Part shown: positions 1-64,000 of the stretch, piece after piece | Numbering within the stretch: the first letter of the stretch is position 1 | Layout: every line of letters begins with the position of its first letter | Assembly (NCBI GenBank): GCA_002328585.1 | Contig: DCUV01000032.1 | Coordinates: 189,569 to 253,568 of the forward strand | DNA length: 64,000 nucleotides | Direction of reading: 5' to 3' | Source of the DNA: Spirochaetia bacterium UBA2205 | GTDB lineage: Bacteria > Spirochaetota > UBA4802 > UB4802 | The notes under the pieces: model-generated | The model's database searches: none | Told to the model about the DNA's origin: nothing | What the model saw: the letters and a program-made list of their open reading frames with translations, nothing else | Program-made: the position numbers and the translations under genes

Positions 1-503
1 TATTCCTGTATCAATCGGTTGCTTTCCCGTAATGCAGGTATATCACTATGAGCGATAGTTGATTTGGTAACATTCACCAGTGTGATAAAATCACCTATAG
101 CTTCATTACACAGTATAAGTTCGTTACTGGCTACCATTGCATCATCAAGTTTTAAAAAATCAGATTGTATACATGTGATATCACCATCTAAATTTTTCTT
201 TTGTTCAGCAAGCATCACCGGAGATATATCCACCATGGTGACACTGGCAGCATTACAATGCTTTATAAAATCTTTCATTAAAAATCCGTAGCCACCACCC
301 ACCTCCATGATTGCATGGATATCCTGAAAATTGATGTGGTCACTCAAAAAATAATATAATGTGTCACCAAACGATGCATTGTGCTTGGTCACAGCACGGC
401 AGGGACTATTTTCAGGATAGAGCATGTTACAAACGGTTAGTTCCCATCCCAATGTTGTTAATGTATTACTATGGTATGGACCCGTATCATTAATGTACAT
501 CAT
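1..503 (-). CDS. class I SAM-dependent methyltransferase (partial, C-terminus beyond window start)
   Basis: Minus-strand translation from the ATG at 503 reads MMYINDTGPYH...AIMEVGGGYGFLMKDF...VTMVDISPVML. The glycine-rich motif I matches class I MTases. The ATG overlaps the upstream TGA (ATGA). The frame is open to position 1. Absent from the ORF track because it is partial. Confidence 0.6.
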   Translation of the reverse strand, partial: MMYINDTGPYHSNTLTTLGWELTVCNMLYPENSPCRAVTKHNASFGDTLYYFLSDHINFQDIHAIMEVGGGYGFLMKDFIKHCNAASVTMVDISPVMLAEQKKNLDGDITCIQSDFLKLDDAMVASNELILCNEAIGDFITLVNVTKSTIAHSDIPALRESNRLIQE

Positions 504-880
504 ACCGTAATTCCACCTGAAGGAGGCTGTGGTGGTGATGAAAAGAGTAAATAAAAAAGTGCTATAACAAGAAGAATTATAATTATAATAATTACGATAA
601 TTGTTCGTTGCGTTTTTGTGGGCATCAATCTAAAGTTCAGGATTGTGTACCAGTACGAATACAATTTTTCAATGACCCTGCTTATTATACTGGTTTGGGA
701 TGCTTTTGGTTTTGGTTTACTATCATACCACAGATCAAATACTGCATCCGAATAGAGCCGGGGATTATCAGGATTAGCAATAAACGAATATCCGCATTTG
801 CAGGTAACTTTTACAGTACCGGAATTAATCGGGAAACGCAATTTTGCTCCACAGTTGGGGCAGGGTTTTATGACATACAT
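500..880 (-). CDS. zinc-ribbon domain membrane protein
   Basis: N-terminal CPNCG...CKCG zinc ribbon, a Pro-rich linker, and a single strongly hydrophobic C-terminal helix (IIVIIIIIILLVIALFYLLF). Confidence 0.55.
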   Translation of the reverse strand: MYVIKPCPNCGAKLRFPINSGTVKVTCKCGYSFIANPDNPRLYSDAVFDLWYDSKPKPKASQTSIISRVIEKLYSYWYTILNFRLMPTKTQRTIIVIIIIIILLVIALFYLLFSSPPQPPSGGITV

Positions 881-890
881 ACCTGATACC

Positions 891-2382: not shown

Positions 2383-3303
2383 ATGTCAACAACAGTTATT
2401 AACAGTATGCTGAACGCTATCCCATCCAATGCTGCCAATAAAACAGGTGGCATATATATTAATATTGTAAAAAATGAATTTATAATCCTTGATAACGAAA
2501 TTAAGATTCCCAGAATTGCGGTAACAAGCCTGTCATATGATGATGCATTGACTTTTATGCCCTCCATCGTTTCCCTCATACCTGCATTTTTATATAACCA
2601 TATACTGCTGCAACAACGCAACCCTGCAAACGAATTACATAGCCTCCATTTTGCGTCTTTGCTGGAAGGGAAGCTGTTGCATTTTTATCATATTTTGCGC
2701 ATAGACTTTAAGTTTGGGGGCGATAGTTCCTCGGTAATTCAACCTGGCAGTAATGATTATTATCCTTCATATACAACAAACAGGCTTTATTATAAATCCC
2801 GACTGATACCAACACTGCAGTATTCACCTGAGCCAATTATTCCTATTAAACTCATACAGTCTATTACAACTGAATCAGACCAGTTTTTCCATACCTACGC
2901 ACTGTTTGATGATGTTGATACAACAAAAGTAACCCATGAATTGAATACTCTTTTACATGCATTCACGATACCAGAAAACCTGTATCCCTTCGTTGTTTTT
3001 GATTACTATACAGCATGCATGAATATTGTTTATCCTGATTCACATGAACTTGCATGGGCTATCGCTGTATATGAACCGCTTTTTCTTATAATTGCATCAC
3101 ACTACATTGATCTTAATGCCATTATACCGTACCATGCAATAAAGAAAGCGTTTCCTGATTTCTTCACCATAGTAAACGATAAACTGATTCCCGAAGATAA
3201 CCTGCTGAATATGATTCAAACTTATTTCAAACGATTTTCTTTTTCCCGAGATGAACAATGTATGCTGAAAGGATGGTGGCAATTTGTTATTGCACCGCAG
3301 TAA
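2383..3303 (+). CDS. hypothetical protein
   Basis: 306-aa ORF with no recognisable motifs. The start is uncertain. Confidence 0.4.
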   Translation: MSTTVINSMLNAIPSNAANKTGGIYINIVKNEFIILDNEIKIPRIAVTSLSYDDALTFMPSIVSLIPAFLYNHILLQQRNPANELHSLHFASLLEGKLLHFYHILRIDFKFGGDSSSVIQPGSNDYYPSYTTNRLYYKSRLIPTLQYSPEPIIPIKLIQSITTESDQFFHTYALFDDVDTTKVTHELNTLLHAFTIPENLYPFVVFDYYTACMNIVYPDSHELAWAIAVYEPLFLIIASHYIDLNAIIPYHAIKKAFPDFFTIVNDKLIPEDNLLNMIQTYFKRFSFSRDEQCMLKGWWQFVIAPQ

Positions 3304-5618: not shown

Positions 5619-5620
5619 TT

Positions 5621-7435: not shown

Positions 7436-7511
7436 TAGTAACTATCGCCTTTTACAAAACATAGAATATATAATTTTTGTTTTTAAATGTATAGATCAAA
7501 AAAAATATGAA

Positions 7512-9160: not shown

Positions 9161-10171
9161 CTAATTCTTTATGATGCAACAACCAGTTTCATTAACAACT
9201 TTTTCTATCATCATAAAAAATTTATTACCATTTATCAACGCGTTATAACCTCCATCTACCAAAAGAAATTCATTTGTTCCACCTAATATGCTATAAGTAA
9301 ATGGTATTGCATAAAATGTATTATCATAATTATACACTACTATTCCATCGCCGTTGTTTATGATAATACCATCATTAAGCAAATGAACATCCTGCAGTTT
9401 TGTAAAGCTTTTCATTGTCTTGTCCTTTTTCGTTGTGATACTGATACTTTTTAAATCCCAATGTCCAGCACTACCCGTAATAACAAACAGCTTATCATCT
9501 TTTAGTATATTCTTCCATGAGGCAATCCGTATACGGGATAGCAAAATATCTCCTTCAGTGGACAATACCCATGCATTGTACATTCCGGCTATTCCCACAA
9601 TTATAATGAGCTTATTACTGACAGCATGCATATATCCATTGTAGTATTTCAATGTTTCCGGTGGTGGAAAATCTATAGATGACAATCTTCTTATTTTTTT
9701 ATCATCCTGACTATGTACATATAACTCTTCCCCGCAGAGCAAATAAACATCCTTATTACAATACGAAACTGCTTTAATGGGTTTGGTTGTTGGGTTATTG
9801 ATAATGATTTCCTCATCAGACGAAAACTTACATACCATAATGCCATCAGTTACAACACAAACATCATCGGTAGAATCATACCATACACTAACCACTTCAC
9901 GTGGGAATTCATATGCTTGTTTTTTGGGATACAGCATGGTGAGTAACGTTTCAGTAGAAAAAACTGCATATGGAGTACAAACAAAACTTTGCTCATCCAA
10001 CGTTTTTTCCATAGAATACTCTATCAACCCGTCTTTAATTTTTACAAAGGCACTTTGATATAATCCCTCCTGATACAGTTCAATTCCTTCATTTACCGTT
10101 TTTTGCCTTGAACATGATATAGTAATAAGTAAAAGAACAATACTGCAAGCTGAAAGATAACGAAGAATCAT
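9161..10171 (-). CDS. hypothetical lipoprotein
   Basis: N-terminal LLLITISCS lipobox-like signal. No recognisable catalytic motifs. Confidence 0.45.
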   Translation of the reverse strand: MILRYLSACSIVLLLITISCSRQKTVNEGIELYQEGLYQSAFVKIKDGLIEYSMEKTLDEQSFVCTPYAVFSTETLLTMLYPKKQAYEFPREVVSVWYDSTDDVCVVTDGIMVCKFSSDEEIIINNPTTKPIKAVSYCNKDVYLLCGEELYVHSQDDKKIRRLSSIDFPPPETLKYYNGYMHAVSNKLIIIVGIAGMYNAWVLSTEGDILLSRIRIASWKNILKDDKLFVITGSAGHWDLKSISITTKKDKTMKSFTKLQDVHLLNDGIIINNGDGIVVYNYDNTFYAIPFTYSILGGTNEFLLVDGGYNALINGNKFFMMIEKVVNETGCCIIKN

Positions 10172-10173: not shown

Positions 10174-11529
10174 CTAACCTTTTTTACCTTTAATTTTTTC
10201 CATTGTTTTTTGTAAAAATCGCCCGTCCATGATTTCAATCATTTTATTTGCTGCCTGAGATTTAGCATTAATACTAAATTTTGATGTTGTTATATAAATA
10301 CCACTTTTACACTTCTCTTCAAGCATACGCTGGTAAAAAGTATTAATCTGCCCTTCGGTTATATCACGGGTTGTTCGTATAAAATTAATTAAAACCGGCG
10401 GTTCATTTATCCTTTTAACGCTAAAACATTTATACATGTACTCATTGGCCGAAACTTCTTTTTTATATACTATACTATAATTTAGCTGAGCAATAATCTC
10501 AGTAATAAGCGGCTGTAACTCTGCCATAGTAGAAGTAAACAAGAATTTAAGATTTTTATTTTCAAGAATTGATTTGTAATCGTCAAGCTTTACCTGTGTG
10601 CTGCGATAATTAGGATTTATACTTGCAATCTTTTCCCAGTGATGTACTGCTTCTGGTATCTTATTTTCCATCTCATAACATTCCGCCAATAAATAACGAT
10701 ATGCCAATCCTTCGTCTGTATTATCCTTTATATATGGCAATCCTTTTTCCAGTTCTTCGATTGCTTTAGAATATGCATCATTATCAAAATATAACTGTCC
10801 TATAGCATACTGGCTTTTATCAAAATACCGTCTATCGTTGCGAGCCTTACCAAGCATCTCTAAAGCAGCAGTATAATCCTTTTTCATCTTAAAGATCATA
10901 CCAAGATAGTAATGGGCTTCATAATTTGTAGCATTTGTTTCAACAGCTTTAATCAGAAAATTTTCTGCTGTTCCATATTCACCTGTATTATACAGACATA
11001 TACCTAACGGTGCATAAAGATCAGAAAGAGCAGGGTCCAGTGTAACTGCTTTCAATAAATAATCTTTGGATCCGGTATAATCATGCTGGCGGTAAAGCAC
11101 AATCCCCAATCTGTAGTTGGCATTGATATCGTCGGGATTAAACTGTAAAATAATTCTGAACTCTTCAACCTCTTTTTGCCATTGTTGTGTTTCATGGTAT
11201 AGGTCAGCAAGATGATAATGGATATCCAGTTCCCCTACATATTTATCAAAATCAGGTATACTGAGTATTCCATTAAGTTCTGCAATAGCCAGTAAATATT
11301 GTTTTTGTTGAATCAATATCTGCGCCCTGAGATAACGCGCAGGGACATAATCCTTTTTTCGTTCAAGAACCAGCTTGACAATTTCACTTGCTTTTGCAAT
11401 GTCTCCATTATCAAGATATTCCTGAGCTTTTCGTACTTTTGCAGGATATTGATGTGCCCGTATAATTACCAGCAGCGCGCCAACAATTGATGCGCCAACA
11501 ATAAAAAATGTAATGCTTAATAATGACAT
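10174..11529 (-). CDS. TPR-repeat membrane-anchored protein with C-terminal Mrr_cat-like (restriction-endonuclease-fold) domain
   Basis: N-terminal TM helix, multiple TPR-like repeats (AxxxY/LG spacing), and a C-terminal ~140 aa resembling the Mrr N-terminal endonuclease-like fold (LITEIIAQLNY...IYITTSKFSINAKSQA...IEIMDG). Confidence 0.6.
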   Translation of the reverse strand: MSLLSITFFIVGASIVGALLVIIRAHQYPAKVRKAQEYLDNGDIAKASEIVKLVLERKKDYVPARYLRAQILIQQKQYLLAIAELNGILSIPDFDKYVGELDIHYHLADLYHETQQWQKEVEEFRIILQFNPDDINANYRLGIVLYRQHDYTGSKDYLLKAVTLDPALSDLYAPLGICLYNTGEYGTAENFLIKAVETNATNYEAHYYLGMIFKMKKDYTAALEMLGKARNDRRYFDKSQYAIGQLYFDNDAYSKAIEELEKGLPYIKDNTDEGLAYRYLLAECYEMENKIPEAVHHWEKIASINPNYRSTQVKLDDYKSILENKNLKFLFTSTMAELQPLITEIIAQLNYSIVYKKEVSANEYMYKCFSVKRINEPPVLINFIRTTRDITEGQINTFYQRMLEEKCKSGIYITTSKFSINAKSQAANKMIEIMDGRFLQKTMEKIKGKKG

Positions 11530-11785: not shown

Positions 11786-11862
11786 CTAAAGTTACATACC
11801 TGGATTCAGGATAAAGCCCGGAATGACGTTGATGAATAAATCTATTTTAAATGGAGGAATAT
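11785..11862 (+). promoter_or_regulatory. conserved ~78-nt leader element, copy B (upstream of purE)
   Basis: Aligns with 8319-8396 over most positions (tctaaagt, aagcccggaatga, ttgatg, tctatttt, ggagg-ATG). Confidence 0.6.
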
Positions 11863-12393
11863 ATGCCAGAAATAGGGATTATTGTTGGCAGTGATTCGGA
11901 CCTTCCTAAATTAAAGGGATGTTTCCAGACATTAGATGATTTTAATGTTTCGTATGATGTAAAAGCGTATTCTGCTCACCGTACTCCTCACCTGGTTGCT
12001 GAATGGGTTGTTCAGTTTGAAAAGGATGGTGGCAAGGTTATCATTGCCGCGGCAGGCGGCGCTGCTCATCTGCCAGGGGTTGTTGCTTCTCATACTATAC
12101 TCCCGGTCATAGGTATTCCCGTTGAAACATCCATAGCTGGAGGGCTTGATTCATTGCTTTCTATTGTCCAGATGCCATCGGGCATACCGGTAGCAACGGT
12201 TGCTACAGGAAAAGCAGGTGCAACCAATGCAGCACTTTTGGCTATTGCAATCCTATCAACCTCCAATCCTGACTATAGTGCTAAATTAAAAAACTACCGC
12301 GACACAATACAAAAAACTATCGCCAGGAAAAATGAAACGTTAACTAAACAGGGTATTTACGAATATATAAAAGAGTTAGAGGCACAAAAATGA
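11863..12393 (+). CDS. purE: 5-(carboxyamino)imidazole ribonucleotide mutase PurE
   Basis: IGIIVGSDSDLP...AHRTP...IIAAAGGAAHLPGVVAS. The ggagga RBS 6 nt upstream favours the ATG at 11863 over the ORF-track start at 11851. Confidence 0.9.
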   Translation: MPEIGIIVGSDSDLPKLKGCFQTLDDFNVSYDVKAYSAHRTPHLVAEWVVQFEKDGGKVIIAAAGGAAHLPGVVASHTILPVIGIPVETSIAGGLDSLLSIVQMPSGIPVATVATGKAGATNAALLAIAILSTSNPDYSAKLKNYRDTIQKTIARKNETLTKQGIYEYIKELEAQK

Positions 12394-13958
12394 TAGAGCA
12401 TGGCATTGGAATATCCTCTCAAAATAAAGTGCTCATACTGGACTTTGGTTCGCAGTACACACAGCTCATTGCTCGTAAAATACGGGAATTGCATGTATAT
12501 GCAGAGATAGTTCCCTACACAATAACTATCGCCGAAATAACAAAAGAAAATCCCGGTGCCATTATACTTTCTGGAGGACCTTCCTCATTATACGAGGATA
12601 ACGCTCCGCACATCTCAGATGATCTATTTTCGCTGGGATTACCGGTGCTTGGTATTTGCTATGGGTTATATGCTGTGGTTAATGCATTTCATGGTATCAT
12701 CAATCCTTCCCCATTCAAGGAATATGGCAGGGCAACCATAAAGTTAGTTGAAGAATCTCCATTGTTTAAGGATCTTCCCCGCACACAAACGGTATGGATG
12801 AGTCACGGCGATACCGTTGAACGTATTCCGGAGACATTTAAAACAATAGCACGTTCTGAAAATGCGCCATACGCTGCTATAGAAAACAGGGAAAAGAAAA
12901 TTTACGGCGTACAATTTCACCCCGAAGTGTATCATACCCAGTACGGAAAGGAAATTTTATGCAATTTTTTATTTACTATCTGCAATTTCCAGCCTACATG
13001 GACCATGCAATCTTTCATTGATGCTGCGATTAATGATATACGCAATGTAGTAAAAGATGGCACTGTTTTACTGGGGCTGTCCGGCGGTGTTGATTCTTCA
13101 GTTACTGCAGTGTTGCTACAACGAGCAATTGGTAATCATCTGTACTGTGTGTTTGTTAACAATGGATTATTGCGCAAGGATGAGCATAGAAAGGTTATAG
13201 AACGTTTCAAAAAACATCTAAAACTCAATCTCATCTATGCTGATGCTGAAGAACATTTTTTACATAAACTTAAAGGCGTTATTGACCCGGAAGAAAAGCG
13301 TAAAATAATTGGTAAAGAATTTATTACTATTTTTAAACAAGAAGCTGCTAAAATTGGCACGTTTGACTTTTTAGCCCAGGGTACACTCTATCCCGATGTC
13401 ATTGAATCAGTTTCCACAAAGGGCCCATCTGATACAATAAAGAGCCACCACAACAGGGTGCCTGAAGTGCTGGAGCTTATCAATGAAGGCAAAGTGATTG
13501 AACCATTAAAAGAGCTATTTAAGGATGAGGTTCGCGAGTTAGGAAGGCAATTAGGAATGCCCGAAGAATTAATAAACAGGCATCCATTCCCTGGCCCAGG
13601 GCTTGCCATCCGCATCATTGGTGAGGTCACCAGAGAACGTCTTGCCATAGTGCGTGAAGCTGATGACATACTCATAGAAGAGATTAAGAATGCTCATTTC
13701 TATAACAAATTGTGGCAGGCTTTTGCGGTATTTTTACCCGTTAAATCGGTAGGCGTCATGGGTGATAAACGTACCTACGATAATGTCATAGCACTACGCG
13801 TTGTTACTTCGCTTGATGCAATGACTGCCGACTGGGCATATCTGCCTGAAGATTTAATGCGCCGAATCTCTACACGCATTATTAATGAAGTAAAAGGCGT
13901 GAACAGAGTTGTATATGACATTTCATCAAAACCACCATCAACCATTGAATGGGAATAA
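12390..13958 (+). CDS. guaA: GMP synthase (glutamine-hydrolysing)
   Basis: GATase region (LGICYG, GVQFHPEV) and PP-loop SGGVDSSV. 522 aa, ATGA-coupled to purE. Confidence 0.95.
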   Translation: MIEHGIGISSQNKVLILDFGSQYTQLIARKIRELHVYAEIVPYTITIAEITKENPGAIILSGGPSSLYEDNAPHISDDLFSLGLPVLGICYGLYAVVNAFHGIINPSPFKEYGRATIKLVEESPLFKDLPRTQTVWMSHGDTVERIPETFKTIARSENAPYAAIENREKKIYGVQFHPEVYHTQYGKEILCNFLFTICNFQPTWTMQSFIDAAINDIRNVVKDGTVLLGLSGGVDSSVTAVLLQRAIGNHLYCVFVNNGLLRKDEHRKVIERFKKHLKLNLIYADAEEHFLHKLKGVIDPEEKRKIIGKEFITIFKQEAAKIGTFDFLAQGTLYPDVIESVSTKGPSDTIKSHHNRVPEVLELINEGKVIEPLKELFKDEVRELGRQLGMPEELINRHPFPGPGLAIRIIGEVTRERLAIVREADDILIEEIKNAHFYNKLWQAFAVFLPVKSVGVMGDKRTYDNVIALRVVTSLDAMTADWAYLPEDLMRRISTRIINEVKGVNRVVYDISSKPPSTIEWE

Positions 13959-44544: not shown

Positions 44545-44551
44545 GTTGTTT

Positions 44552-48834: not shown

Positions 48835-49651
48835 GTGGTAACATCCTGTTTAAATTTCCTGATGAAAAACCTTCACAATCAACCGTTACGTATAAAAAAC
48901 CAAGTTCCTTTATAAAAGCAACAACTTTATTACGGAGGGTTGTATCCATAAAATATGCAATTTCTTCTTCTGGTATCTCAATACGTGCAATGGGATAATG
49001 ATACCGCACCCGTACCGCTGTAAATCCCAATCCGGCAATAAAAGTCTCTGCTTTTGCAATACTATCAAGCATATTATTTGTTATGTTAGTATGGTACGGT
49101 ATGCGCGTTGCTAAACATGAGTTGGAAAATTGTGCATGCGGTATCTGCATATCTGCCAGAGCACTATAAATATCATCTTTTGTTATGCCAGCCTCAACAA
49201 ACGGCGATAGTATCCCTAATTCTTCCAGCGCCTTTTTTCCGGGCCTATAATCGTTACAATCCGAAGCATTGCTTGCATCTATGACATTTATAAAACTATT
49301 AGCGTGTGCATACGCAAGAATATTTTTAAAAATTTCATGTTTACAGTAGTAGCACCGCATTTCAGTATTTGCTATAATCTGGCGATTGCTCATTACCGAT
49401 ACTGTAATCTCGTGATACGGGATACGATGGTTCTGTGCAAAATAACGGGCATATTCTGTTTCGCCCGGAATGGTAAATTCGCTGATGCAATGAACCGCAC
49501 AAAAATCCATACTCCGGCGCATAGATATTGCAGCAAGCAATGTTGAATCATTACCCCCGGAATATGCCACGATAAACGGCTGGAGTTTTCTCAATATTTG
49601 ATGTACTTGTTCAATCTTTTTTTCATCCATACGGTAACCATTATACCACAA
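48827..49651 (-). CDS. PP-loop ATP pyrophosphatase, LarE-like (TIGR00268 family)
   Basis: SGGNDS PP-loop, and a CYYCK cysteine pair at the position of the LarE sacrificial Cys. Confidence 0.6.
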   Translation of the reverse strand: MWYNGYRMDEKKIEQVHQILRKLQPFIVAYSGGNDSTLLAAISMRRSMDFCAVHCISEFTIPGETEYARYFAQNHRIPYHEITVSVMSNRQIIANTEMRCYYCKHEIFKNILAYAHANSFINVIDASNASDCNDYRPGKKALEELGILSPFVEAGITKDDIYSALADMQIPHAQFSNSCLATRIPYHTNITNNMLDSIAKAETFIAGLGFTAVRVRYHYPIARIEIPEEEIAYFMDTTLRNKVVAFIKELGFLYVTVDCEGFSSGNLNRMLPHE

Positions 49652-49689
49652 ATACCTTTTAGTGCAACTACTCTATAGAATCAATGTAT

Positions 49690-51246
49690 CTAAAACCATG
49701 CGGTTGCACCAAATTCACCTTTACCATTTTTTATGTGCGATAGCTCCGATAATAACCTCAATGACAGTTGACATAATCTGCTGCGATAACTTACCCGCAT
49801 AGCCAGATAAACGGCTGTACTGGAACAGGCTTCAGTTAGTATATTGCTGTTTGATAAGGGAAGCATTGCGCAGTACACCTTTTTACCATTACTGTTTACA
49901 TAGACAACACTCATGGCATGCTGTAGAGAACCCCACTGGACCCCATAGCCTGATCTGATATACCATGCTGAATCATCTCCCGTATATAGTCCGTATTTCA
50001 TATTCAGTGATACATTTTTTGTAACCATCCAATCCAGCCCTGTTTGATACCGCGAATCCTGCTGCTCTGCACCTTCTTTATACAATGTCATGAGGCGATA
50101 ATCCGTTTGTATCTGTAAGGATTGTATAGTAAACGTTGTCCTGATACAATGAAGTCGTTTATGAGGATATTCAGCATAATATGTTGATGGTACAAGATAG
50201 TTCTGGTCAATGTATGCCCATGAAAACAGCATCCACCTGATTGGTTTTATCTGAGCTGAATAATAATAAATATCACGTGGCGCATTACCGCCAAATGAAC
50301 TGCTGAATGGAGCATAGAAATATCGTTCTGTTTTTTGTATTATGCTGCGAAGTTGTATGCCTTTCTTTTTAACGGTAATCCCATACAGGTAAGCATTGTT
50401 GTATTGTGATGGTGAAGAGCTATTGCCTTTTACCTCTTTTTGTGCGATAGCCCACTCAGTAAATACTGTTAATATGTTATCCTGATATCTTCCATACAGG
50501 CTATACCCTCCAAACGACTGTAATGCTGTTCCATTCCCATTATCTTTATCAAATACTATTTTTGTATTCTCATGATATAATCCCGTATGGTAATAGCATC
50601 CCTGCACAACAACATATTCAAAGGGCTGCAACGTTACATTGGCAAAATAGGTGATAATATTAACTGGTTCGGAATATAATCCATCCTTGCTATCATGTGA
50701 AAGCAAACCACTAATACTGTAAGGATACAGCTTTTCCTCAACATCATCAGATCGCATAAATCGCTCCTGCAATGATGCTCCGATACGCAATCGTACCTGC
50801 GGCTTGTTTAATCTATCATAGAGTGATAGAACTATTCCATGCATCGCGTAGTCAGGGTTTCCGCTTTTACATAGTGATATCCCCGTTTCGCCGCTCCGTA
50901 CAGGGAATGAGTATGGATCAGGATTATAAACAGCAGGCTTACCCAGCAACAGCCCTGATGCATTATGGATAAAATAATATCCAGCTACTATTGCCGCATA
51001 TTCTCCTGTATTGCTAAAAGCCCATGTTGCCGTTGTTTTCCCATTATTTGTTTTTATCAGTGTTGCATAAACCTTTGCATAATCTGTTGTGACACTTATT
51101 GAGGAACGTAGATATCGTTGCGTATCAGCTTCATAATCCATGGCATCCTCTCTATATTCAACTGATACGGTACTCAACGCCACCACTGCATGAAAAAACA
51201 CCACCGTAAATACCATGCTTAACAGTGCAACTATTGTATTCCGCAT
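49690..51246 (-). CDS. large outer-membrane beta-barrel protein (hypothetical)
   Basis: Signal peptide. Aromatic-rich alternating strands throughout. The C-terminal ...ATAWF has the terminal Phe typical of OMP barrels. Confidence 0.5.
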   Translation of the reverse strand: MRNTIVALLSMVFTVVFFHAVVALSTVSVEYREDAMDYEADTQRYLRSSISVTTDYAKVYATLIKTNNGKTTATWAFSNTGEYAAIVAGYYFIHNASGLLLGKPAVYNPDPYSFPVRSGETGISLCKSGNPDYAMHGIVLSLYDRLNKPQVRLRIGASLQERFMRSDDVEEKLYPYSISGLLSHDSKDGLYSEPVNIITYFANVTLQPFEYVVVQGCYYHTGLYHENTKIVFDKDNGNGTALQSFGGYSLYGRYQDNILTVFTEWAIAQKEVKGNSSSPSQYNNAYLYGITVKKKGIQLRSIIQKTERYFYAPFSSSFGGNAPRDIYYYSAQIKPIRWMLFSWAYIDQNYLVPSTYYAEYPHKRLHCIRTTFTIQSLQIQTDYRLMTLYKEGAEQQDSRYQTGLDWMVTKNVSLNMKYGLYTGDDSAWYIRSGYGVQWGSLQHAMSVVYVNSNGKKVYCAMLPLSNSNILTEACSSTAVYLAMRVSYRSRLCQLSLRLLSELSHIKNGKGEFGATAWF

Positions 51247-52472
51247 GCAGCCCTGACCATTTTTTGCTGATAGGTATCAAGACTTCTATATAATGGCGAT
51301 TGCAGTATCCCCTGTATACCCGCCTTTTGATATTCCTCAGCCAGTACTATGGCAATATCCGACGGTATATCGGCAGCTAACATAGACTGAAAGAGCCTTT
51401 TTATTTTTTTATTCTGCTCTTCTTTTGATATATATGTTCTGCCTTGATATTTCTTATGGTAATCCTTTTTTTCGTCTTTGTCATCATCACAATAATTACA
51501 GGTAACCTCCTGCAATTGACGTATCTGCTGTGTTGTAAATCCCAGCTGATATAATGATCTTGTGCTGACGGCTCCAAACATCTCTCTAAATTTGATAATA
51601 CGCTGACACAAGACATCAGGTGCAATACCCAGAGCAATAAGCTCCTGTTGGCTGCATGTCTGTATATTGAGCTTTATTGCAGTATTTTGTTTATATTCAC
51701 TATGAGCCGGGAAAGCATATCCCGCGCTTGCATAGGTTATCCCAAATCTATGCGTGTTTCCCAGAAATGAATGATGCTGAAGCATATAGTAAAGAAGGAT
51801 ATTGCCCCATGCAACATTCACACCGGCTGAAGATAGTTCCAGTTCCTTACTATATCCAACCAGTACGCTTACATGCCTGGTTATATATCCGTTTATCCAT
51901 ATACATTGCTGTATATCCCCATCATAGGAAAGCGTATATTCAACAGCACATCCATCAAAAATATCAGCATTGCATGAAAATATTGTAGTTGGCGTAATAT
52001 ACTCATCATCGCCGTAATGCTGTATATTGTTGGTGAATAAAGTGCACGACAATCGTTCGAAGGGTGTTACCGTAGCCAGCAATCCATAATCAACACTATG
52101 TTTTGTTGCAGTAAACTCTTCAGTTTTTATTGAAAGAATATAGTCATGTACCCTGCAACCCACCTTTATCCAGTGAGCTATCGCCCAATCAAGCCCTGCG
52201 GATAGTGTATCCTCACGATACTCGGGTATGCCAAAATAATGCCACCGTATTCCACCTTCATATTCTTTCCCCTTGTAGGCAACATTTGAATTTGTTTCTT
52301 TAAGCTGAGGAAAGCCAAAAGGATTTGCATAGCTAAGGCTGCACACAAATGCAGGGTAGTTGCTGTACAATTTTCCCAATAACGGGTCCTGCACATGTAA
52401 CGGTAATGCTACTTTATATGCATTTTCAAACGCGCCTATAAGCATAGTTATTGTCAGCAGCAATGAACCCAT
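51231..52472 (-). CDS. beta-barrel domain protein with C-terminal ComEA-like helix-hairpin-helix DNA-binding domain
   Basis: N-terminal signal peptide, then about 280 aa of beta-strand-like alternation (IRWHYFGI, CIWINGYITRHVSVLVGYS, RFGITYASAGYAF). After that, QQELIALGIAPDVLCQRIIKFREMFGAVSTRSLYQLGFTTQQIRQLQE matches the ComEA HhH consensus. Confidence 0.55.
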   Translation of the reverse strand: MGSLLLTITMLIGAFENAYKVALPLHVQDPLLGKLYSNYPAFVCSLSYANPFGFPQLKETNSNVAYKGKEYEGGIRWHYFGIPEYREDTLSAGLDWAIAHWIKVGCRVHDYILSIKTEEFTATKHSVDYGLLATVTPFERLSCTLFTNNIQHYGDDEYITPTTIFSCNADIFDGCAVEYTLSYDGDIQQCIWINGYITRHVSVLVGYSKELELSSAGVNVAWGNILLYYMLQHHSFLGNTHRFGITYASAGYAFPAHSEYKQNTAIKLNIQTCSQQELIALGIAPDVLCQRIIKFREMFGAVSTRSLYQLGFTTQQIRQLQEVTCNYCDDDKDEKKDYHKKYQGRTYISKEEQNKKIKRLFQSMLAADIPSDIAIVLAEEYQKAGIQGILQSPLYRSLDTYQQKMVRAACGIQ

Positions 52473-53455
52473 TACTCAACCACGATGCAATAAAATTTTT
52501 TACTCTCGCAGTTGGCATTGTCCTGAGCCTCAGCAATACCAAGATATAACCCACAGGTAAGATGCTTGATAGTATTGGTCCAATCAACCAGCTGGAAACC
52601 AGGCAATGCGGCAATCAGTGGGCTTTCGTATATTTTGTAGCCTATAGAGGAAAACAGGCGTATCCTGAGCCTGCATGGCTGGACAGCAAAAACGGAAAGC
52701 TGCTGTATATTTTTTTTAGAAACAACTATCTTGCGTTTAATTTTTATGAATTCTGACCTTGAATGATTTATTGGCAAAATATTGGTGCGCCCTGCCGTTT
52801 GATATGATGTAATGACAAAATCGTTATGACCATTACTATCCACCCCGCTTTTGCGGATAATACTTTGATATTCCAAAATTCCGCTTTGACCAATATCAAC
52901 CATGCACTCTTCACTGGCAGAAGCACCTGCCCATTGATTATGTTGCATAGCGCTTTGAAGATATTGCCCAATTGATTGGTTAAGTGTACCATCCCTGTTG
53001 GAATAAGCCACAAAATCAATTATCCCGCCATTTGACGGCTCATCATCACTATCTATTGCTACCACACAATCGGTATTCCATAAACTGTTGATATAGTTAT
53101 TGCAATAGACATCAAGAACGCCATTGCTATTGGTATCTCCAGTAACATCACACTCATCTGTCACACCTGGTTTTGTAGGATGCACAACAACAAACCTGTC
53201 ATCCCATGGTGTTTCAACTCTATCATAGCTGTATATTGTCACAGGATATTGCGAAAGCGGTTCACTGGTTCCATAATACATGGTTACATACAGCGATGAA
53301 ATATCCAATGATAGCTTCTGCTCAGAGCAGCAAAACAGCTCAACCCAATCGCCCCCTGGTACATTGCAGGCTATTTCATTAATGAGCAGTTGTGGATAAC
53401 CAATAGAAGTGTGGAACAAACACACAATAACAATAATCCAGCGCATACAAATCAT
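52472..53455 (-). CDS. lamin-tail-domain (LTD) secreted protein
   Basis: Signal peptide followed directly by LLINEIACNVPGGDWVELF, the classic LTD N-terminal motif. Its stop overlaps the next start (TAATG). Confidence 0.65.
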   Translation of the reverse strand: MICMRWIIVIVCLFHTSIGYPQLLINEIACNVPGGDWVELFCCSEQKLSLDISSLYVTMYYGTSEPLSQYPVTIYSYDRVETPWDDRFVVVHPTKPGVTDECDVTGDTNSNGVLDVYCNNYINSLWNTDCVVAIDSDDEPSNGGIIDFVAYSNRDGTLNQSIGQYLQSAMQHNQWAGASASEECMVDIGQSGILEYQSIIRKSGVDSNGHNDFVITSYQTAGRTNILPINHSRSEFIKIKRKIVVSKKNIQQLSVFAVQPCRLRIRLFSSIGYKIYESPLIAALPGFQLVDWTNTIKHLTCGLYLGIAEAQDNANCESKKFYCIVVE

Positions 53456-53572: not shown

Positions 53573-54244
53573 TTGCTTGACCAACTAAATTTAAATGGAA
53601 AAGTATTTGCCATGGTAAAGCTCGATAATCCTTATTCACAGTATCGCCCCACATGGAAGGTTTTTATTCCAATGGTTGTGATGTACCCGTTATTGAAAGT
53701 AGCGATGCAGTATGCGTATTTTTCTTTTTTATATCAGTATAGCATTGTGCTTTTATTGTTAATTGTCATTGCACAATATTGTGATAAAGGACTCTTTACA
53801 AAAGAGCGGATTTTTGTCTTTGACCTTCCTTTTGAACGGAAGATATTTTACCTCATGGTCATGGTCATTATCCTGATCCCTATCCGTAATATAGCCATAC
53901 AATTTACACAAAATCCTCAAACGTTACACTTCTATCAGGGGCAGATGCCATTGCTGGAGTCAATGCTTGTAATGGTAGCTATTATTGCGCCATGTGAAGA
54001 GCTTTTTTTCAGGGGATTTGTACAATACAACCTTAGCTTTTATTTTGGGAAATATGGGGCGATAGTTATTGGCGCATTATTCTATAGTTTGATAGGGGCA
54101 GCCGCACATTCACTATACCTTGCAGTCATCTTCTTCTTCATTGGCATAACGATAGGATATATCTACAGCAAGGTAAAATCACTGCTGCAATCTATATTTC
54201 TTCATGTCATAACCATTATTTTTATGTATATCTATCCCTTTTAA
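53573..54244 (+). CDS. CPBP-family intramembrane metalloprotease (CAAX protease-like)
   Basis: EELFFRG (motif 1) and FxxxH-like AAAHSLY. Multiple TM helices. Confidence 0.75.
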   Translation: MLDQLNLNGKVFAMVKLDNPYSQYRPTWKVFIPMVVMYPLLKVAMQYAYFSFLYQYSIVLLLLIVIAQYCDKGLFTKERIFVFDLPFERKIFYLMVMVIILIPIRNIAIQFTQNPQTLHFYQGQMPLLESMLVMVAIIAPCEELFFRGFVQYNLSFYFGKYGAIVIGALFYSLIGAAAHSLYLAVIFFFIGITIGYIYSKVKSLLQSIFLHVITIIFMYIYPF

Positions 54245-56948: not shown

Positions 56949-57977
56949 CTATCGCAGCAATCGGCTGCTTTTATTCTGTAGAATTGCCTCTACATCTGCT
57001 TTACCAACAATAAAATTATCACCATGAACGCTATGAGCCAGGCCACACAAGGCAAGTGCATTATCAACTGCTGTTTCAAGCGATTGCTGTTGTATCAATG
57101 AATAGATAAACCCTGCAGCAAGAGCATCCCCTGCACCAATACGGTCAACGATATGCGGCACCTCCACTGTTTTCATCGACACCTCTTTTTCTCGTGTTGC
57201 TGCTGCTGCGCCCACCGTTACTGCAGAAGCCGTAGCACCTTCTCTATAGGTTATCACAACCGCAGAAAGATTTGCATACGTATTAAAGAGTGCATGTATG
57301 GTGCTATGAATATCCTGTTTCTTTTCAGCATGGGGCAACAAAAAAAGCGCGAGATGCTCTTCATTCCCTATCAATATATTAATAGAGGGCATCAGCCGTA
57401 AAAATGCATCCCTGGCATCATTAACACTTTTCCATAGTGTCTGGCGATAGTTAATATCAAAAGAAACTATTCCCTTTTTTTCATTAACAATACTTGCTGC
57501 TTTAATGCTTTCTTCACAGATAGTATTTGAAAGCGCCAGGGTTATACCTGTTGTATGGAACCATGCATTGCTTGGGATTATTGCATTCCAATGAATATCT
57601 TCATGCTGTAATTGTGTAAATGCGCTGTTGTTTCTGTCATAGATAAGCCGTGAAGCCCTGGGCCCGGCACCCTGTTCATAAAAATACAATCCCATGCGTG
57701 TATCCGGTTTCATCACAATGTCATCAGTGATGACGCCAAACCCCTGTAAATAACGCTTTGCAGCATCACCTAGAACTGTATCAGGCAGAGCAGAAACAAT
57801 CCTGCATGGTATCCCCACCTGTGAAAGTATCACCGCACAGTTTGCCTCTGCTCCCCCAAAGTAAGCCTCAAACATATTTGTCTGAAACAGCCTGCTGTAG
57901 CCTGGAGGTGATAATCGCAGCAATACCTCGCCCCAGGCAATAAATTCAGTTATGGTAGTATTCTCTTTTTCCATCAT
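56949..57977 (-). CDS. kdgK: PfkB-family sugar kinase, 2-dehydro-3-deoxygluconokinase-like
   Basis: N-terminal GE.LLRLSPPG, FGGAEAN, and the C-terminal DRIGAGDALAAGFIY anion-hole motif. Lies next to uxuA. Confidence 0.7.
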   Translation of the reverse strand: MMEKENTTITEFIAWGEVLLRLSPPGYSRLFQTNMFEAYFGGAEANCAVILSQVGIPCRIVSALPDTVLGDAAKRYLQGFGVITDDIVMKPDTRMGLYFYEQGAGPRASRLIYDRNNSAFTQLQHEDIHWNAIIPSNAWFHTTGITLALSNTICEESIKAASIVNEKKGIVSFDINYRQTLWKSVNDARDAFLRLMPSINILIGNEEHLALFLLPHAEKKQDIHSTIHALFNTYANLSAVVITYREGATASAVTVGAAAATREKEVSMKTVEVPHIVDRIGAGDALAAGFIYSLIQQQSLETAVDNALALCGLAHSVHGDNFIVGKADVEAILQNKSSRLLR

Positions 57978-58048
57978 CCAGTTCCATCATCAGTAACTAT
58001 CGCCCATAATATTTTTTAGCTCATCATCAATGGGTATAGTTTATATAG

Positions 58049-59428: not shown

Positions 59429-60136
59429 CTATACCGTAACAGCTATTGCTTTCCCATGGGGCAATATAACTTTTTGTGCTTCCACATTCCATTGTTGCAA
59501 CGTTTCATCAACAAGATGCTTACCCTTAACCTGATAATGGATGGGGATAACAATGTTTGGCTTGCATTCCCTCACCAACTGCGCTGCCTGCTGAAGATCC
59601 ATCCCATCTTTTCCAATGATAGGATAGGTAGAGCATGCCACCTGCACCATGGCGATAGTTACTGTATAGGGGGTCAGAGCCTTTTTTAAGCTCTCCGTGT
59701 ACAGGGTATCCCCTGAAAAATACAGCACCATGCTATCCTTTTTGATAATGAACCCAACGGCATCCTTTGCCATAGGGTGAAAGGCTGGGACAGCAATGAC
59801 GGTAAATCCTTCACACTCAACAGACTGTCCTGGTGTCATAGCCTTTACCTTTGTTGCCTTATGCTTTACAGCCCTTTTCACTGCACTCGTTGAACCTATG
59901 ATTGGTATATTTCGTTTAACTGCAACATCGATAGCACGCTTACACCAGTGGTCAACATGGTTGTGCGAAACCAGCATATAATGAATTGGCATTATCGATT
60001 CGGGATCAACAGTTAAAGGAACTGCCCGCAACAATTCAAAAGAACCCCACCATGGATCGGTCATAACCATTATGCCATCAAGGTTAATACATACCGTCGC
60101 CTGCCCAATAAGGGTAAATTCAATCTTCATACCCAC
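59429..60136 (-). CDS. MBL-fold metallo-hydrolase (UlaG/lactonase-like)
   Basis: VSHNHVDHW and a downstream H/D ligand. Confidence 0.7.
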   Translation of the reverse strand: MGMKIEFTLIGQATVCINLDGIMVMTDPWWGSFELLRAVPLTVDPESIMPIHYMLVSHNHVDHWCKRAIDVAVKRNIPIIGSTSAVKRAVKHKATKVKAMTPGQSVECEGFTVIAVPAFHPMAKDAVGFIIKKDSMVLYFSGDTLYTESLKKALTPYTVTIAMVQVACSTYPIIGKDGMDLQQAAQLVRECKPNIVIPIHYQVKGKHLVDETLQQWNVEAQKVILPHGKAIAVTV

Positions 60137-61107
60137 CCTCGCATTTTAATATGATACTCATACGCATCGATGGTACTTTCAATATCATTTTTTACAGGCT
60201 TCCAGCCTAATGTTTTTTTTGCACATGTATTGTCAAAGACATAGTCGCGTAATGCTATTTCTAGGTGTTGCGGCTCAACGGGCGATAGTTTTATGGCAGA
60301 TAATCCTTTTACAAGAGTACGGGCAATCCATGCAGGAACTGAAATTATTTTTGGCTTTTTGCCGGCATGTTCAAAGAGCGCCTCTACAAGCTGTCGCGTT
60401 GTTGGCACATTGTCACTGGCAACATTTGCAATGATTATACCCTTTTTCATTTTTTCAAGACACAAATAGATTGCATTTGCAACATCGCGTACATCCACCA
60501 TCTGCAATTTTGTTTTACCACCACCTGGCAGTATCACCGGATTCCCTTTGTACACCGCTTCCATCTGGGCAACTAAAAATGGCTCATTCTGCCCGGGACC
60601 ATTGATCGTTGGTGGGCGCACTATTGAAACAGCACATCCTTTTTCTGCCAGCTGTATGCACATACGCTCTCCCTCAACCTTGTGCCTGCCGTAGGGGCAT
60701 ACGGGCTGTAACGGCACGTCTTCACTGCAGGGGACTGGAACATCAATGCCATATACCTCTACCGATGAGATATAGACAAGTTGCGGAATTTTTAATTCTT
60801 TGCATACCTCTACAACATTTTTTGTTCCCGTAACATTAATGGCAAACATGTCCTTTTCATCGCGCACAAACTGTGCCAGAGCCGCCGCACAATGGACGAT
60901 AGCCTGTACACCCTTACATGCTTTTTGTATAATATCTTTCTGTACAATATCACCTTTCATAAAGGTAAACTTTTTATTGGAAATAACTGACGGTTCATTC
61001 ATGTCTTTCAGGTCTATCCCTGTTACAGCAAAGTTTTTCTCTAACAGGGTTTTTACAACCTGTCGTCCTAAATAGCCCGAACATCCTGTTACGCATATCA
61101 CTCTCAT
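60127..61107 (-). CDS. NAD-dependent epimerase/dehydratase (extended SDR)
   Basis: N-terminal VTGCSGYLGRQVV Rossmann motif and YGRHK catalytic YxxxK. Confidence 0.8.
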   Translation of the reverse strand: MRVICVTGCSGYLGRQVVKTLLEKNFAVTGIDLKDMNEPSVISNKKFTFMKGDIVQKDIIQKACKGVQAIVHCAAALAQFVRDEKDMFAINVTGTKNVVEVCKELKIPQLVYISSVEVYGIDVPVPCSEDVPLQPVCPYGRHKVEGERMCIQLAEKGCAVSIVRPPTINGPGQNEPFLVAQMEAVYKGNPVILPGGGKTKLQMVDVRDVANAIYLCLEKMKKGIIIANVASDNVPTTRQLVEALFEHAGKKPKIISVPAWIARTLVKGLSAIKLSPVEPQHLEIALRDYVFDNTCAKKTLGWKPVKNDIESTIDAYEYHIKMRGWV

Positions 61108-61124: not shown

Positions 61125-61829
61125 TTATAGTTTACCGTATTTTTTATATATCTCCACCAGAGATTTTCCCCCTCGTATCTCTTCTCGAGAACGCCGTTCT
61201 GCTGTTACAACCTCCTCCGCCTTTTCCACTACCTCTTTCAAATCAACATCTTTGATGGGGATTACCACCACGCCATCACAATCAGCAAATATAATATCAC
61301 CCGGGTTAACCCTGACACCACCGCACCAAATGGGTCCCCCAATGCCTACAAGGTCAACCCTCCCAACAGAATCAGTAGGTATATTGCCACGTGCCCATAC
61401 CGGAAATTCTACCTCTATAACCCTGTTTATATCACGGATGGGGCCATCCACCACCGCTCCTTTCACACCACCATAATACTTGCAGGTTGTTGACATAAGT
61501 TCACCCCATGCCCCTGCTTCATAGAACTCGTTAGCATTGACCACTGCTACCTGTCCTTTTTGCATGCTTCCAAAAAGATCTTCCAGAACCTTTGCTACAA
61601 ATTCAGGATCATACTCGCTAAGGCGCGTACTTTTGCGGGTTTTTGCTTCCTCCATGGTGAAAGCAGGACCGGCAATAGCAGCATCTGACATGATAGGACT
61701 AAATCCTGAACACATCGCCTGATGCATAAATCCCATCTCATCAAGCGTATCACATACTGCAGGTGTATAGGTTTTCTCCAACCTGATACATAGTTCAATT
61801 ATTTGTTCATGGGTATATGTTGGTGCCAT
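61125..61829 (-). CDS. RraA-family protein (RraA / 4-hydroxy-4-methyl-2-oxoglutarate aldolase-like)
   Basis: GGVKGAVVDGPIRD...VNPGDIIFADCDGVVVIP fits the RraA/MenG fold. Start set at the Met at 61829 (MAPTYTHEQ), which avoids overlap with the upstream gene. Confidence 0.65.
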   Translation of the reverse strand: MAPTYTHEQIIELCIRLEKTYTPAVCDTLDEMGFMHQAMCSGFSPIMSDAAIAGPAFTMEEAKTRKSTRLSEYDPEFVAKVLEDLFGSMQKGQVAVVNANEFYEAGAWGELMSTTCKYYGGVKGAVVDGPIRDINRVIEVEFPVWARGNIPTDSVGRVDLVGIGGPIWCGGVRVNPGDIIFADCDGVVVIPIKDVDLKEVVEKAEEVVTAERRSREEIRGGKSLVEIYKKYGKL

Positions 61830-61842
61830 ATAAAACCTCCTT

Positions 61843-64000
61843 TTATTGAATTTCAATAGTAACAAAACGTAATTCGTGAGGCTTTAGCGATAGATACTTT
61901 CTATTGGCCATATCACCTCTTTTTTCCCCAGAGCAGGTTGAATAATAAACTGCTACCGGCTGTTTTGATGTTATATCAATCCGGGTACTTTGTAATTTCC
62001 CCGTGGTTTCAAATAGTCCAACGGTAAACTTTTTATTGGTTATGGGGTACATCCACACCACTACAATTGCTGGATTAGACAGTGTTACCGGTGAAGAGGT
62101 TGTATAACCATATTCCTTGAAACTTTTATCATACGCCTTTGCCAGTGCATCGTTGATGCTATCAGCGCTAAAAGTTGTGAAGGTACTCCTGAATACTGTT
62201 TTATCCTTCAGGCTCTGCCCAAGTCCTACCTTTCCCCATAATGTCCACCCAATACAGCAGTGATAAAATCCATTACTGCCCATGGAATAACTTGACTCGG
62301 GAACTATCGCTTTACTGTCCTTTGTCATAAACAAAGCATACATTGCATCATCCCTTACCATGGTAAAAGCATCACAGTGAAACGATGGTGGCAATCCATA
62401 CATCCACTGGAAGGGATATAAGGTGTCATTGATACTTTTAAACGGCGCAGTATTCTTTGCGGCAGGAATGATATTGCCACCATTATAAATAGATCCCCAG
62501 CGTAATGGAGTGAATGCAGCATCATAGTACAGTGCATCCGATGTTAAAGGATATGCAAAGGAATGCTCAGCTATCTGTGGCTGTGACCCGCTGAATGTCT
62601 GTATCAATTCAATCTTTTTTTCATCCGCTGGAAGCACAATCTCCTGGGTAAGGGTAAGCGAAGGTGTAAAAAGCTGGTAAAAAAAATACACCACCTTTAA
62701 TAGCCATGGCGGTAATGAAACATGAAATGACTTATCCAGAAAATCTGCAATCAGTTCCATCCCTTTGTAATACTCTTTAACCGCACCCTCAATGATTATT
62801 CTATAATCATCATGATAACGGTAAACCAAAACATCAGGACTTTTAAATCCTTCAATGCATTGATAATAATCCCGCCGTGCACCATTTTCGCCACGCACTG
62901 CCTGCACATACTGATTAAATCCGTACTGAGCATTGTTTCGCATCCACTCTTTTTGCAGATCTTTATCATATACACCGGTAATGCTTCCTTTTTTTTGGTC
63001 GATAGTTACCCTGTAAAAATGACTATCGATAATAATGATATCTTTTTTATATTTTATTTTTTCCCAGCTCCGCCCGTCATGATACACCTCACTATATCCA
63101 GCCTTATGCATCAATATCTGCGGCAGCTTTATCCATTCGGAGCGGGTATTCATCCAATCTTTAACATCATCCGAGGTATAGTGTGTTTTGCCAAAAGGAA
63201 CAGGCCGGGGATTGTGATCATTATTGAGGAGTATTGCTTTATATCCCGATTCAGCAACAATATGGAAAGAATCAACATCAATGGGCTTATCATGCACCAA
63301 AGCGTCAACAACGGTTGAAGCAAGCTGATACATCCCTCTATCAAACATGCAGTTTATCAAAAGCCTTTGAGGATCCGTCTGAATAAAGTCCAGATAAATC
63401 TGCTCGCCCCAGAATGGTGCCATCTCACCCTTGATGCGCGGTATTGCGCCGTTGTAGCGCGAACGCACATAATCAAAAAACTGCGAAGGTGTAGCAATGA
63501 TAATCTCTGGATTTATCATTTTTTTATTCCATTCGCGGGCTATTTCAGAGGGGACGATATTTTGTGGCTGGTTGTCGCCACCCTGTGCAGGATAGTAAGG
63601 CAAAAGGTATGCATCATAGGGATAGTCCCAACGTGCATTGCCATAATCAAAATACTGTTGTATTTCAGCGGTAGGGTACCCTTTCTCAAGTTGCGCCAGA
63701 TGCAGGGCAATGCTGTTCTCCATAGTGGTAAAAGCATGTTCATCAAATGGCAGTTTTAGACGCATAGCAAGGTCAAAGTTTTCGCCATAGCCATTGAGCC
63801 CAGCACTGTGCCATACCAGTACATCCGCACTGGCATCCGGCGAAACACAATAAAACAGCGGAGGGACAACATATCGCGAATCATTTGGACCAATCAAAAG
63901 ATAGGGGATGTTATTTGCACACAGTATTTTGGTTACCTTTGAAAAATCCATGACATCATGGATACACGCTGTATGTATTGCTACATTGTACTTTTTTGCA
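61843..64000 (-). CDS. large glycoside-hydrolase-like protein (family uncertain; N-terminus may extend beyond window end)
   Basis: 702-aa ORF starting at 63951, with the frame still open to 64000 upstream. Aromatic/Asp-rich composition typical of GH catalytic domains. No motif confidently assigned. Confidence 0.4.
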   Translation of the reverse strand, partial: AKKYNVAIHTACIHDVMDFSKVTKILCANNIPYLLIGPNDSRYVVPPLFYCVSPDASADVLVWHSAGLNGYGENFDLAMRLKLPFDEHAFTTMENSIALHLAQLEKGYPTAEIQQYFDYGNARWDYPYDAYLLPYYPAQGGDNQPQNIVPSEIAREWNKKMINPEIIIATPSQFFDYVRSRYNGAIPRIKGEMAPFWGEQIYLDFIQTDPQRLLINCMFDRGMYQLASTVVDALVHDKPIDVDSFHIVAESGYKAILLNNDHNPRPVPFGKTHYTSDDVKDWMNTRSEWIKLPQILMHKAGYSEVYHDGRSWEKIKYKKDIIIIDSHFYRVTIDQKKGSITGVYDKDLQKEWMRNNAQYGFNQYVQAVRGENGARRDYYQCIEGFKSPDVLVYRYHDDYRIIIEGAVKEYYKGMELIADFLDKSFHVSLPPWLLKVVYFFYQLFTPSLTLTQEIVLPADEKKIELIQTFSGSQPQIAEHSFAYPLTSDALYYDAAFTPLRWGSIYNGGNIIPAAKNTAPFKSINDTLYPFQWMYGLPPSFHCDAFTMVRDDAMYALFMTKDSKAIVPESSYSMGSNGFYHCCIGWTLWGKVGLGQSLKDKTVFRSTFTTFSADSINDALAKAYDKSFKEYGYTTSSPVTLSNPAIVVVWMYPITNKKFTVGLFETTGKLQSTRIDITSKQPVAVYYSTCSGEKRGDMANRKYLSLKPHELRFVTIEIQ

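Follow-up and report, generated by a model that had tools for sequence, protein, structure and literature searches.

Few classes of hyper-abundant genomic words are known, namely the uptake signal sequences (USS), the DNA uptake sequences (DUS), the highly iterated palindrome HIP1, and Chi together with the FtsK-orienting polar sequences (KOPS), and each of these has revealed a part of chromosome biology. The USS of the Pasteurellaceae (Hin-type AAGTGCGGT and Apl-type ACAAGCGGT) have a non-palindromic, hard 9-bp core with softer flanks, occur roughly once per 1-3 kb without preference for either strand, lie mostly inside genes in tolerated reading frames where they distort codon and peptide usage, arise by point substitution, and are often conserved at orthologous positions among relatives; in H. 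influenzae the perfect USS copies are about as many as the one-off variants. The DUS of the Neisseriaceae (AT-GCCGTCTGAA and its dialects) are words of 12-14 bp that tag the lineage of one clade, show no replication skew and are enriched in ordinary core genes, and they are mostly intergenic and read by the minor pilin ComP. Uptake sequences have been described in just these two proteobacterial families, and about half of those known (DUES) lie in terminators as inverted repeats, the inverted-repeat DUS being located in predicted terminators (bioRxiv 10.1101/2025.10.24.684340). Here we describe the 9-mer GCGATAGTT in a 64-kb stretch of DNA (the window, by which we mean the whole stretch analysed) that matches contig DHGI01000070.1 of the metagenome-assembled genome (MAG) GCA_002402695.1, and whose encoded proteins are labelled "Spirochaetota bacterium" by NCBI. 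Apart from the intergenic location, pilin and dialects of DUS and the placement in terminators, the motif built on this word resembles USS and DUS in all of the properties given above. We found that GCGATAGTT is a word of this kind, hyper-abundant and specific to its lineage, in a phylum from which no such oligonucleotide had been known, and we conclude that a sequence-biased process acting on double-stranded DNA, not selection on protein or RNA, creates and maintains it in one clade. The sequence sampled comprised ~77 kb of the source genome and ~110 kb of scattered loci from the clade.

Abundance and anatomy of the word

The window holds 24 exact copies of GCGATAGTT, 11 on the forward and 13 on the reverse strand, whereas 100 dinucleotide-preserving shuffles of the window average 0.36 copies and never exceed 3, which corresponds to an enrichment over chance of ~70-fold. 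Similarly, the 12-mer GGCGATAGTTAC is present in 17 copies with at most one mismatch where 0.13 are expected, the top-frequency 9-, 10-, 11-, 12- and 14-mers of the window are every one derived from the GCGATAGTT motif, and under a third-order Markov model of the window GCGATAGTT is the sole outstanding k-mer. The word AATACTGCA, considered as a second enriched word, has 9 copies in the window and is unremarkable under the Markov model. GCGATAGTT is non-palindromic (its reverse complement is AACTATCGC) and the two orientations were counted separately. In the 77 kb of the source genome there are 26 copies, and by extrapolation we expect about a thousand per genome.

A hyper-abundant 9-mer on both strands had already been proposed by eye from the letters of the window (the sequence-only reading), and this proposal is borne out; however, its count of 18 was too low. 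Seventeen of its 18 coordinates are right and one (59642) should be 59652, and it missed the copies at 12315 (-), 12524 (-), 15071 (-), 21286 (+), 24526 (-) and 32578 (-), of which the copy at 24526 had been listed at 24525 as a one-mismatch variant. One-mismatch variants of the core are indeed present, but where about 10 had been noted there are 23; by chance ~10 are expected, so that these variants are enriched ~2.3-fold in the window. Thus the 24 perfect copies are about as numerous as all one-mismatch variants together.

The conserved flanks seen in the sequence-only reading extend past the core, and across 50 non-seed sites from the window genome and unrelated clade loci the motif has the consensus kGGCGATAGTTACTG, that is k-G-GCGATAGTT-A-C-T-G. 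Information content is at background level outside about -3 to +13, and neither phased AT tracts nor a second motif were seen around the 50 aligned sites. Among near matches to the 14-mer the mismatches fall almost all in the flanks, which indicates that the 9-bp core is hard and the flanks softer. The 17-mer CATGGCGATAGTTACTG does occur twice in the window, as had been reported, at 27253-27269 (-) and 59648-59664 (+) rather than at 27254 and 59639.

Placement, clade range and origin of the sites

With crude calling of open reading frames (ORFs), 18-19 of the 24 copies lie inside unrelated genes (9 sense and 9 antisense) and 5-6 are intergenic, and the gene copies use five of the six reading frames, the sixth being unusable because it contains TAG; the placement in unrelated genes, in various frames and in both orientations agrees with what had been read from the sequence by eye. 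The 24 core copies are the following.

52-60 (+): intergenic by crude ORF calling, at the window edge
2720-2728 (+): sense in the DUF8295 gene 2383-3303, G-D-S
7440-7448 (-): full GGCGATAGTTAC, intergenic between convergent genes, no terminator hairpin
12315-12323 (-): antisense in the purE-like gene 11851-12393, T-I-A
12524-12532 (-): antisense in guaA 12390-13958, T-I-A
15071-15079 (-): sense in the ccmF-like gene 14921-17077, A-I-V
15798-15806 (+): antisense in the ccmF-like gene, T-I-A
17589-17597 (-): intergenic within the ccm operon
21286-21294 (+): codons 9-11 of an AsmA-family gene, A-I-V
24526-24534 (-): within ORF 24209-24787 (VTT-domain gene)
27257-27265 (-): 5' end of the 7TMR-DISM adenylate cyclase gene, V-T-I-A, in the 17-mer 27253-27269
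32520-32528 (+): antisense in the DUF4015 gene, E-L-S-P
32578-32586 (-): sense in the DUF4015 gene, A-I-V
33087-33095 (-): sense in the DUF4015 gene, G-D-S-Y
34146-34154 (+): antisense strand of the XPB helicase gene, V-T-I-A
43857-43865 (-): divergent intergenic region
44630-44638 (+): sense in gene 44546-44971, A-I-V
47869-47877 (-): sense in the PGA_cap gene, G-D-S
54059-54067 (+): sense in the Rce1-like gene, A-I-V
57444-57452 (+): antisense in the PfkB gene, N-Y-R
57995-58003 (-): full 14-mer, intergenic, upstream of gene 56949-57977
59652-59660 (+): full 14-mer, antisense in gene 59429-60136, T-I-A, in the 17-mer 59648-59664
60282-60290 (+): antisense in the epimerase gene, L-S-P frame
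62302-62310 (-): sense in gene 61843-63951, A-I-V

Two of these copies have some symmetry around them, and they provide the sole symmetry hints around any copy: at 7440 the motif is extended (7436-7451) to GATAGTTACTATC, a perfect 6+1+6 palindrome, and ~25 bp from the copy at 57995 lies an imperfect inverted near-copy, ATGGGTATAGTT.

In the sense frames the word spells AIV (6 copies) or GDS (3), and in the antisense frames TIA (6), LSP (2) or NYR (1). In both LSP-frame copies (32520 and 60282) the 3' flank departs from AC, so that a TAA stop is avoided. Over the 77 kb of the source genome the exact word spells 6/19 of the AIV, 7/18 of the xTIA and 3/7 of the GDSx peptides, where codon usage would predict it in 1-2% of them. 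A peptide motif is therefore excluded by the five frames, the two orientations, the intergenic copies and a codon choice far from expected, and a mobile element, miniature inverted-repeat transposable element (MITE) or insertion footprint is excluded because conservation stops at ~15 bp and the sites align to their orthologs free of indels; the sequence-only reading had argued against an amino-acid motif and a transposon footprint, and the frames, the codon choice and these alignments uphold it. An interspersed repeat of the repetitive extragenic palindromic (REP) or MITE type was rejected on the lack of extended conserved flanks, the 18-19 of 24 copies in genes and the lack of an Rfam family, and a structured RNA on the lack of any Rfam family or tRNA match in the window.

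We found identical or near-identical window DNA in JGI and ENA metagenome assemblies, and many metagenomes contain strains of 98-99% identity. A sequencing or assembly artefact is ruled out, as the same sites recur between species and in assemblies made independently at NCBI, JGI and ENA. When genomes were scanned with the DUF4015 protein, syntenic loci were obtained in six related MAGs, some labelled Leptospira (one with a DUF4015 protein identity of 94%, five with ~59% protein and ~73% nucleotide identity), and all six loci carry GCGATAGTT at 4-8 copies per ~20 kb. Homologs of the XPB helicase leave a gap in identity, with values of at least 85% inside the clade, to which the MAGs GCA_964509195.1 and GCA_040756435.1 also belong, and of no more than 71% in the next relatives (67-71% in the outgroups), and GCGATAGTT is enriched in every sampled clade member, taken as those with an XPB at least 85% identical. 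Five outgroup loci (~96 kb together; the outgroups include L136-L138, L259 and L260) contain one copy in total, and neither the 50 kb taken from the Leptospira biflexa p74 replicon nor the 50 kb from leptophage LE1 contains the word, the Leptospira sampling consisting of this replicon and phage and no Leptospira chromosome. The 9-mers present 5-6 times in L136-L138 were considered as alternative 'dialect' words and rejected, as they are the expected tail of ~130,000 words by an estimate from counts.

Moreover, the word is spread genome-wide. Scanning metagenomes for the 17-mer GGTGGCGATAGTTACTG returned 118 loci, 27 of them with further core copies and a GC of 33-48%; 24 of these 27 have a clade-like GC of 32-41%, and 6 are orthologous to the window. 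The remaining multi-copy loci amount to ~11 new independent regions of clade-like GC, which encode housekeeping proteins (UvrC, SerA, a chemoreceptor, HslU, histidine kinases), and the non-seed density in the metagenome loci is ~1 per 4.6 kb as computed from the copy numbers per locus. As far as sampled, the enrichment thus extends over ~11 unrelated loci and is neither a local artefact nor confined to a single gene family, and the genome-wide signature oligonucleotide suggested by the sequence-only reading is found in that the same word recurs in unrelated clade loci from metagenomes. Carriage by phages was also considered, and a scan of IMG/VR with the 14-mer gave chance-level matches only, the contigs containing 6 extra core copies in ~1 Mb, near chance by estimate, and those with 2-3 copies having a GC of 42-56%.

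Comparison among clade members suggests how the sites arise. The sites at 21286, 27257, 32520, 33087 and 34146 are found at the same position across the clade, and here third-codon positions are fixed within the word and variable in the flanks. The site at 21286 is kept in L123-L126 and L128 between flanks with variable third positions, that at 27257 is kept in L123-L126, the core at 32520 is kept in most clade members though the surrounding DUF4015 segment is variable, and the site at 33087 is kept in L123 and L125-L128, where the word imposes GDSY and outgroups have other residues. In DUF4015, then, the word persists within otherwise variable protein segments. Other sites have a narrower range: 43857 is common to the window and L123, 44630 is present in L123 and L124/L262 and not in L125-L127, L261 or L263, 32578 is specific to the window/L123 lineage, and those at 47869 and 54059 belong to the window lineage alone. 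Conserved and lineage-specific sites together therefore indicate a mixture of ancient and recently gained sites. Overall, 18 of 32 site-by-relative comparisons are fully conserved at ~73% nucleotide identity (17/23 in the first relatives alone, and 18/32 after the addition of three clade loci covering the right half of the window), as compared with 7.5% for arbitrary background 9-mers in the alignments of the first set of relatives. At the XPB site (34146) the VTIA peptide is also present in outgroups, where it is spelled ATA ACC ATT GCG, GTA ACT ATA GCA or ATA ACC ATC GCC; the spelling GTA ACT ATC GCC occurs only in the clade, and no indel is involved. At 54059 the relatives carry GAGGAATAGTT, two substitutions from the word. 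The XPB, DUF4015 and 54059 comparisons therefore show that the word spreads by point substitution and is then retained.

Uptake, binding, repair and polar-motif explanations

Taken together, these observations lead us to propose, tentatively, that GCGATAGTT could be a clade-specific 'self' tag of the chromosome, driven by an uptake or recombination bias of the USS/DUS type. A DNA-binding component of an uptake or recombination pathway would prefer fragments with GCGATAGTT, alleles with the word would be re-imported and recombined more often, near-cognate sites would be converted by ordinary point mutation, and the converted sites would then be held wherever the encoded peptide tolerates the word. 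We place this uptake model first because the statistics match USS/DUS on nearly every computable criterion, including abundance, asymmetry without replication skew, clade restriction, the fitting of reading frames, codon and peptide distortion, conservation of sites combined with turnover, and the ratio of perfect to one-off copies; as with DUS, its copies are enriched in ordinary core genes, the XPB and UvrC loci among them. By analogy with these systems we infer that the biased step would be DNA uptake or recombination, and likewise which protein might read the motif. It is possible, if doubtful, that the motif would represent a third, independently evolved system of sequence-specific uptake or self-DNA recognition, the first outside the Proteobacteria, in a Leptospira-like clade of Spirochaetota, with GGCGATAGTTAC as its tag and a receptor unrelated to ComP. 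Within that reading a candidate receptor would be an envelope protein such as a fusion of a barrel with HHH_3, acting with a further specificity factor. One gene of the window is predicted to encode such a protein.

51231-52472 (-): codes for a protein predicted to combine an outer-membrane beta-barrel with an HHH_3 (ComEA-type) domain, with no demonstrated part in the motif system

Its 413-aa product was called ComEA-like in the sequence-only reading. This label holds at the level of the family, a small and fast-evolving one in which 15 of 17 homologs (45-50% identity) match PF12836 HHH_3, the best at 1.3e-6, and one is named a ComEA family protein by NCBI; for the window copy itself it is weak, the HHH_3 match being sub-threshold (E=0.1), and the product has no sequence relative in the PDB. 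The AlphaFold model (mean pLDDT, predicted local distance difference test, 68.6) has an N-terminal barrel of ~14 strands followed by helical domains, and the barrel matches OmpG-type porins (Foldseek E=3.8e-7), so the prediction for the product is a fusion of an OmpG-like outer-membrane barrel with a C-terminal ComEA-type DNA-binding domain. From the family it is seen that an envelope protein bearing such a domain exists in the lineage, and this protein is the only DNA-binding envelope candidate in the sampled sequence. The gene lies in an operon (47072-53455) together with genes for an Rce1-like protease, two unknown proteins (327 and 518 aa), LarE, a GT2 glycosyltransferase and the PGA_cap protein, and the gene string around it is conserved.

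Several points weigh against the uptake model. The barrel/HHH_3 protein cannot by itself explain the specificity for the motif because the outgroup L136, which lacks the motif, has an ortholog. The link between the two stays as speculative as the sequence-only reading itself had called it. The 64-kb window contains no comEC, dprA or pilus genes, no competence gene was found among the annotated genes of the ~77 kb of source genome and ~110 kb of clade loci, and to our knowledge natural competence or transformation has not been shown in any spirochaete. The sequence-only reading had also likened the word to uptake sequences, and most statistics would fit this comparison, but whereas about half of those known lie in terminators as inverted repeats, this holds for no copy of the motif, and no such hairpin is formed by any of the 5 intergenic copies in the window. 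The motif also differs from USS in its unrelated sequence, in its phylum (the uncultured Spirochaetota) and in being without helically phased AT-rich flanks, and from DUS in that 75-80% of its copies are intragenic and that no pilin or dialect series is known for it. No other hyper-abundant word was found in the five outgroup loci including L259 and L260, and hence no sister dialect, and the spacing of copies is not significantly more even than random (CV, coefficient of variation, 0.85, P=0.27). Finally, L261-L263, which are syntenic to window positions 44.5-56.8 kb, carry 1-2 copies per 21 kb; for comparison, L123 has 8 per 21 kb and the window genome, the densest lineage sampled, 1 per 2.7 kb. 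Such several-fold density differences between members or regions suggest that the strength of the motif-generating process varies among lineages.

The motif could instead be an array of binding sites for a clade-specific DNA-binding protein with no role in uptake, each site being under direct purifying selection, and we regard such an array, read for example by a nucleoid-organising or segregation factor or serving as a self-marker for a defence or repair nuclease, as rather unlikely. With its hard core of 9 bp and its soft flanks the motif covers about one turn of the helix, which is what a single protein domain would be expected to contact; individual sites are conserved, also at synonymous positions and within variable protein segments, and the motif is orientation-independent and without terminator association. 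However, around half of the sites are gained or lost from one clade member to another, so that the position itself is not essential, no candidate protein was identified, and the approximately thousand copies expected here compare with tens per genome in the site arrays SlmA, Noc, matS and parS, abundant nucleoid proteins having degenerate motifs.

Selection at each site would be dispensable if the word were a product of biased repair or modification similar to HIP1 (GCGATCGC, of cyanobacteria), in which a methyltransferase-linked or very-short-patch-type (Vsr-like) enzyme turns near-cognate mismatches into the cognate word without any benefit per site. HIP1 is likewise hyper-abundant in coding and non-coding DNA alike, its sites are conserved, and it has its first five bases, GCGAT, in common with our motif; such a drive would also account for a word that arises by point substitution and is strongly over-used where the change is synonymous. 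We nevertheless consider this improbable: the 8-bp word HIP1 is palindromic and has cognate methyltransferases linked to it whereas the motif is asymmetric and longer, and on this point the likeness to HIP1 put forward in the sequence-only reading fails; among the genes of the window there is none for a DNA methyltransferase or a Vsr-like enzyme; one-mismatch variants are only ~2.3-fold enriched; and 9-14 specified bases are more than in any methyltransferase or Vsr-type specificity known to us. The same reading had offered Chi and the architecture-imparting sequences (AIMS) for comparison, and these, like KOPS, are asymmetric words that occur in excess, serve as marks of the host chromosome and are in the broad sense 'self' signals. 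A Chi-like hotspot or KOPS/AIMS-like polar motif would be read on one strand by RecBCD/AddAB or FtsK, and for this a slight lean to the G-rich strand could be cited, as over 12 independent loci 31 copies are on the G-rich and 22 on the C-rich strand (58% G-rich). This 31:22 split is not significant (p=0.27), and in the window the copies divide 11 + to 13 - even though GC skew is negative over its whole length. The lack of significant strand skew argues against Chi, KOPS and AIMS, which are strongly replication-co-oriented and few-fold enriched, in contrast to the unskewed and ~70-fold enriched motif here; E. coli Chi is ~75% co-oriented, a value against which the 31:22 split was not set directly. 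In addition, known Chi and KOPS motifs have 5-8 nt and a far lower enrichment, and the per-site conservation seen here is not expected for Chi, all of which makes a polar motif very improbable.

Other features of the window and meaning of the motif

Three further features of the window were observed. The 3-kb segment 39313-42357, the lowest-GC part of the window (~31%), holds most of treT and an otsA/otsB fusion gene and no copy of the motif. Strain L131, which is 99% identical, and the 93% relative L123 lack the segment and keep gene remnants only; it represents a trehalose locus that varies between strains, and no motif is present at the boundaries of this otsAB/treT indel between strains. 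At 10174-11529 (-) is a gene for a tetratricopeptide-repeat (TPR) protein with a C-terminal domain of the Mrr-type restriction-endonuclease fold (Mrr_cat E=7.5e-8), adjoined at 9161-10171 (-) by one for a 336-aa protein without a family match, and the two may form a defence or nucleic-acid-sensing pair. Lastly, a peroxiredoxin (AhpC-TSA/1-cysPrx_C) at ~45319-46033 is split into two adjacent ORFs (81 and 135-139 aa), a split seen in the NCBI MAG as well as in an ENA assembly, and it is either a pseudogene or a case of programmed or real frameshifting.

We found no literature record of GCGATAGTT as a genomic signature, matches to the string being primers and unrelated sequences, and nothing relevant in the literature on Leptospira with uptake sequences or over-represented oligonucleotides. 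In practice the motif would serve as a marker to bin MAGs of this clade and to recognise foreign DNA in them. It also provides a handle for asking whether these Spirochaetota exchange DNA sequence-selectively, and if its function is not uptake it would represent a new kind of dense protein-binding or repair-driven signature.

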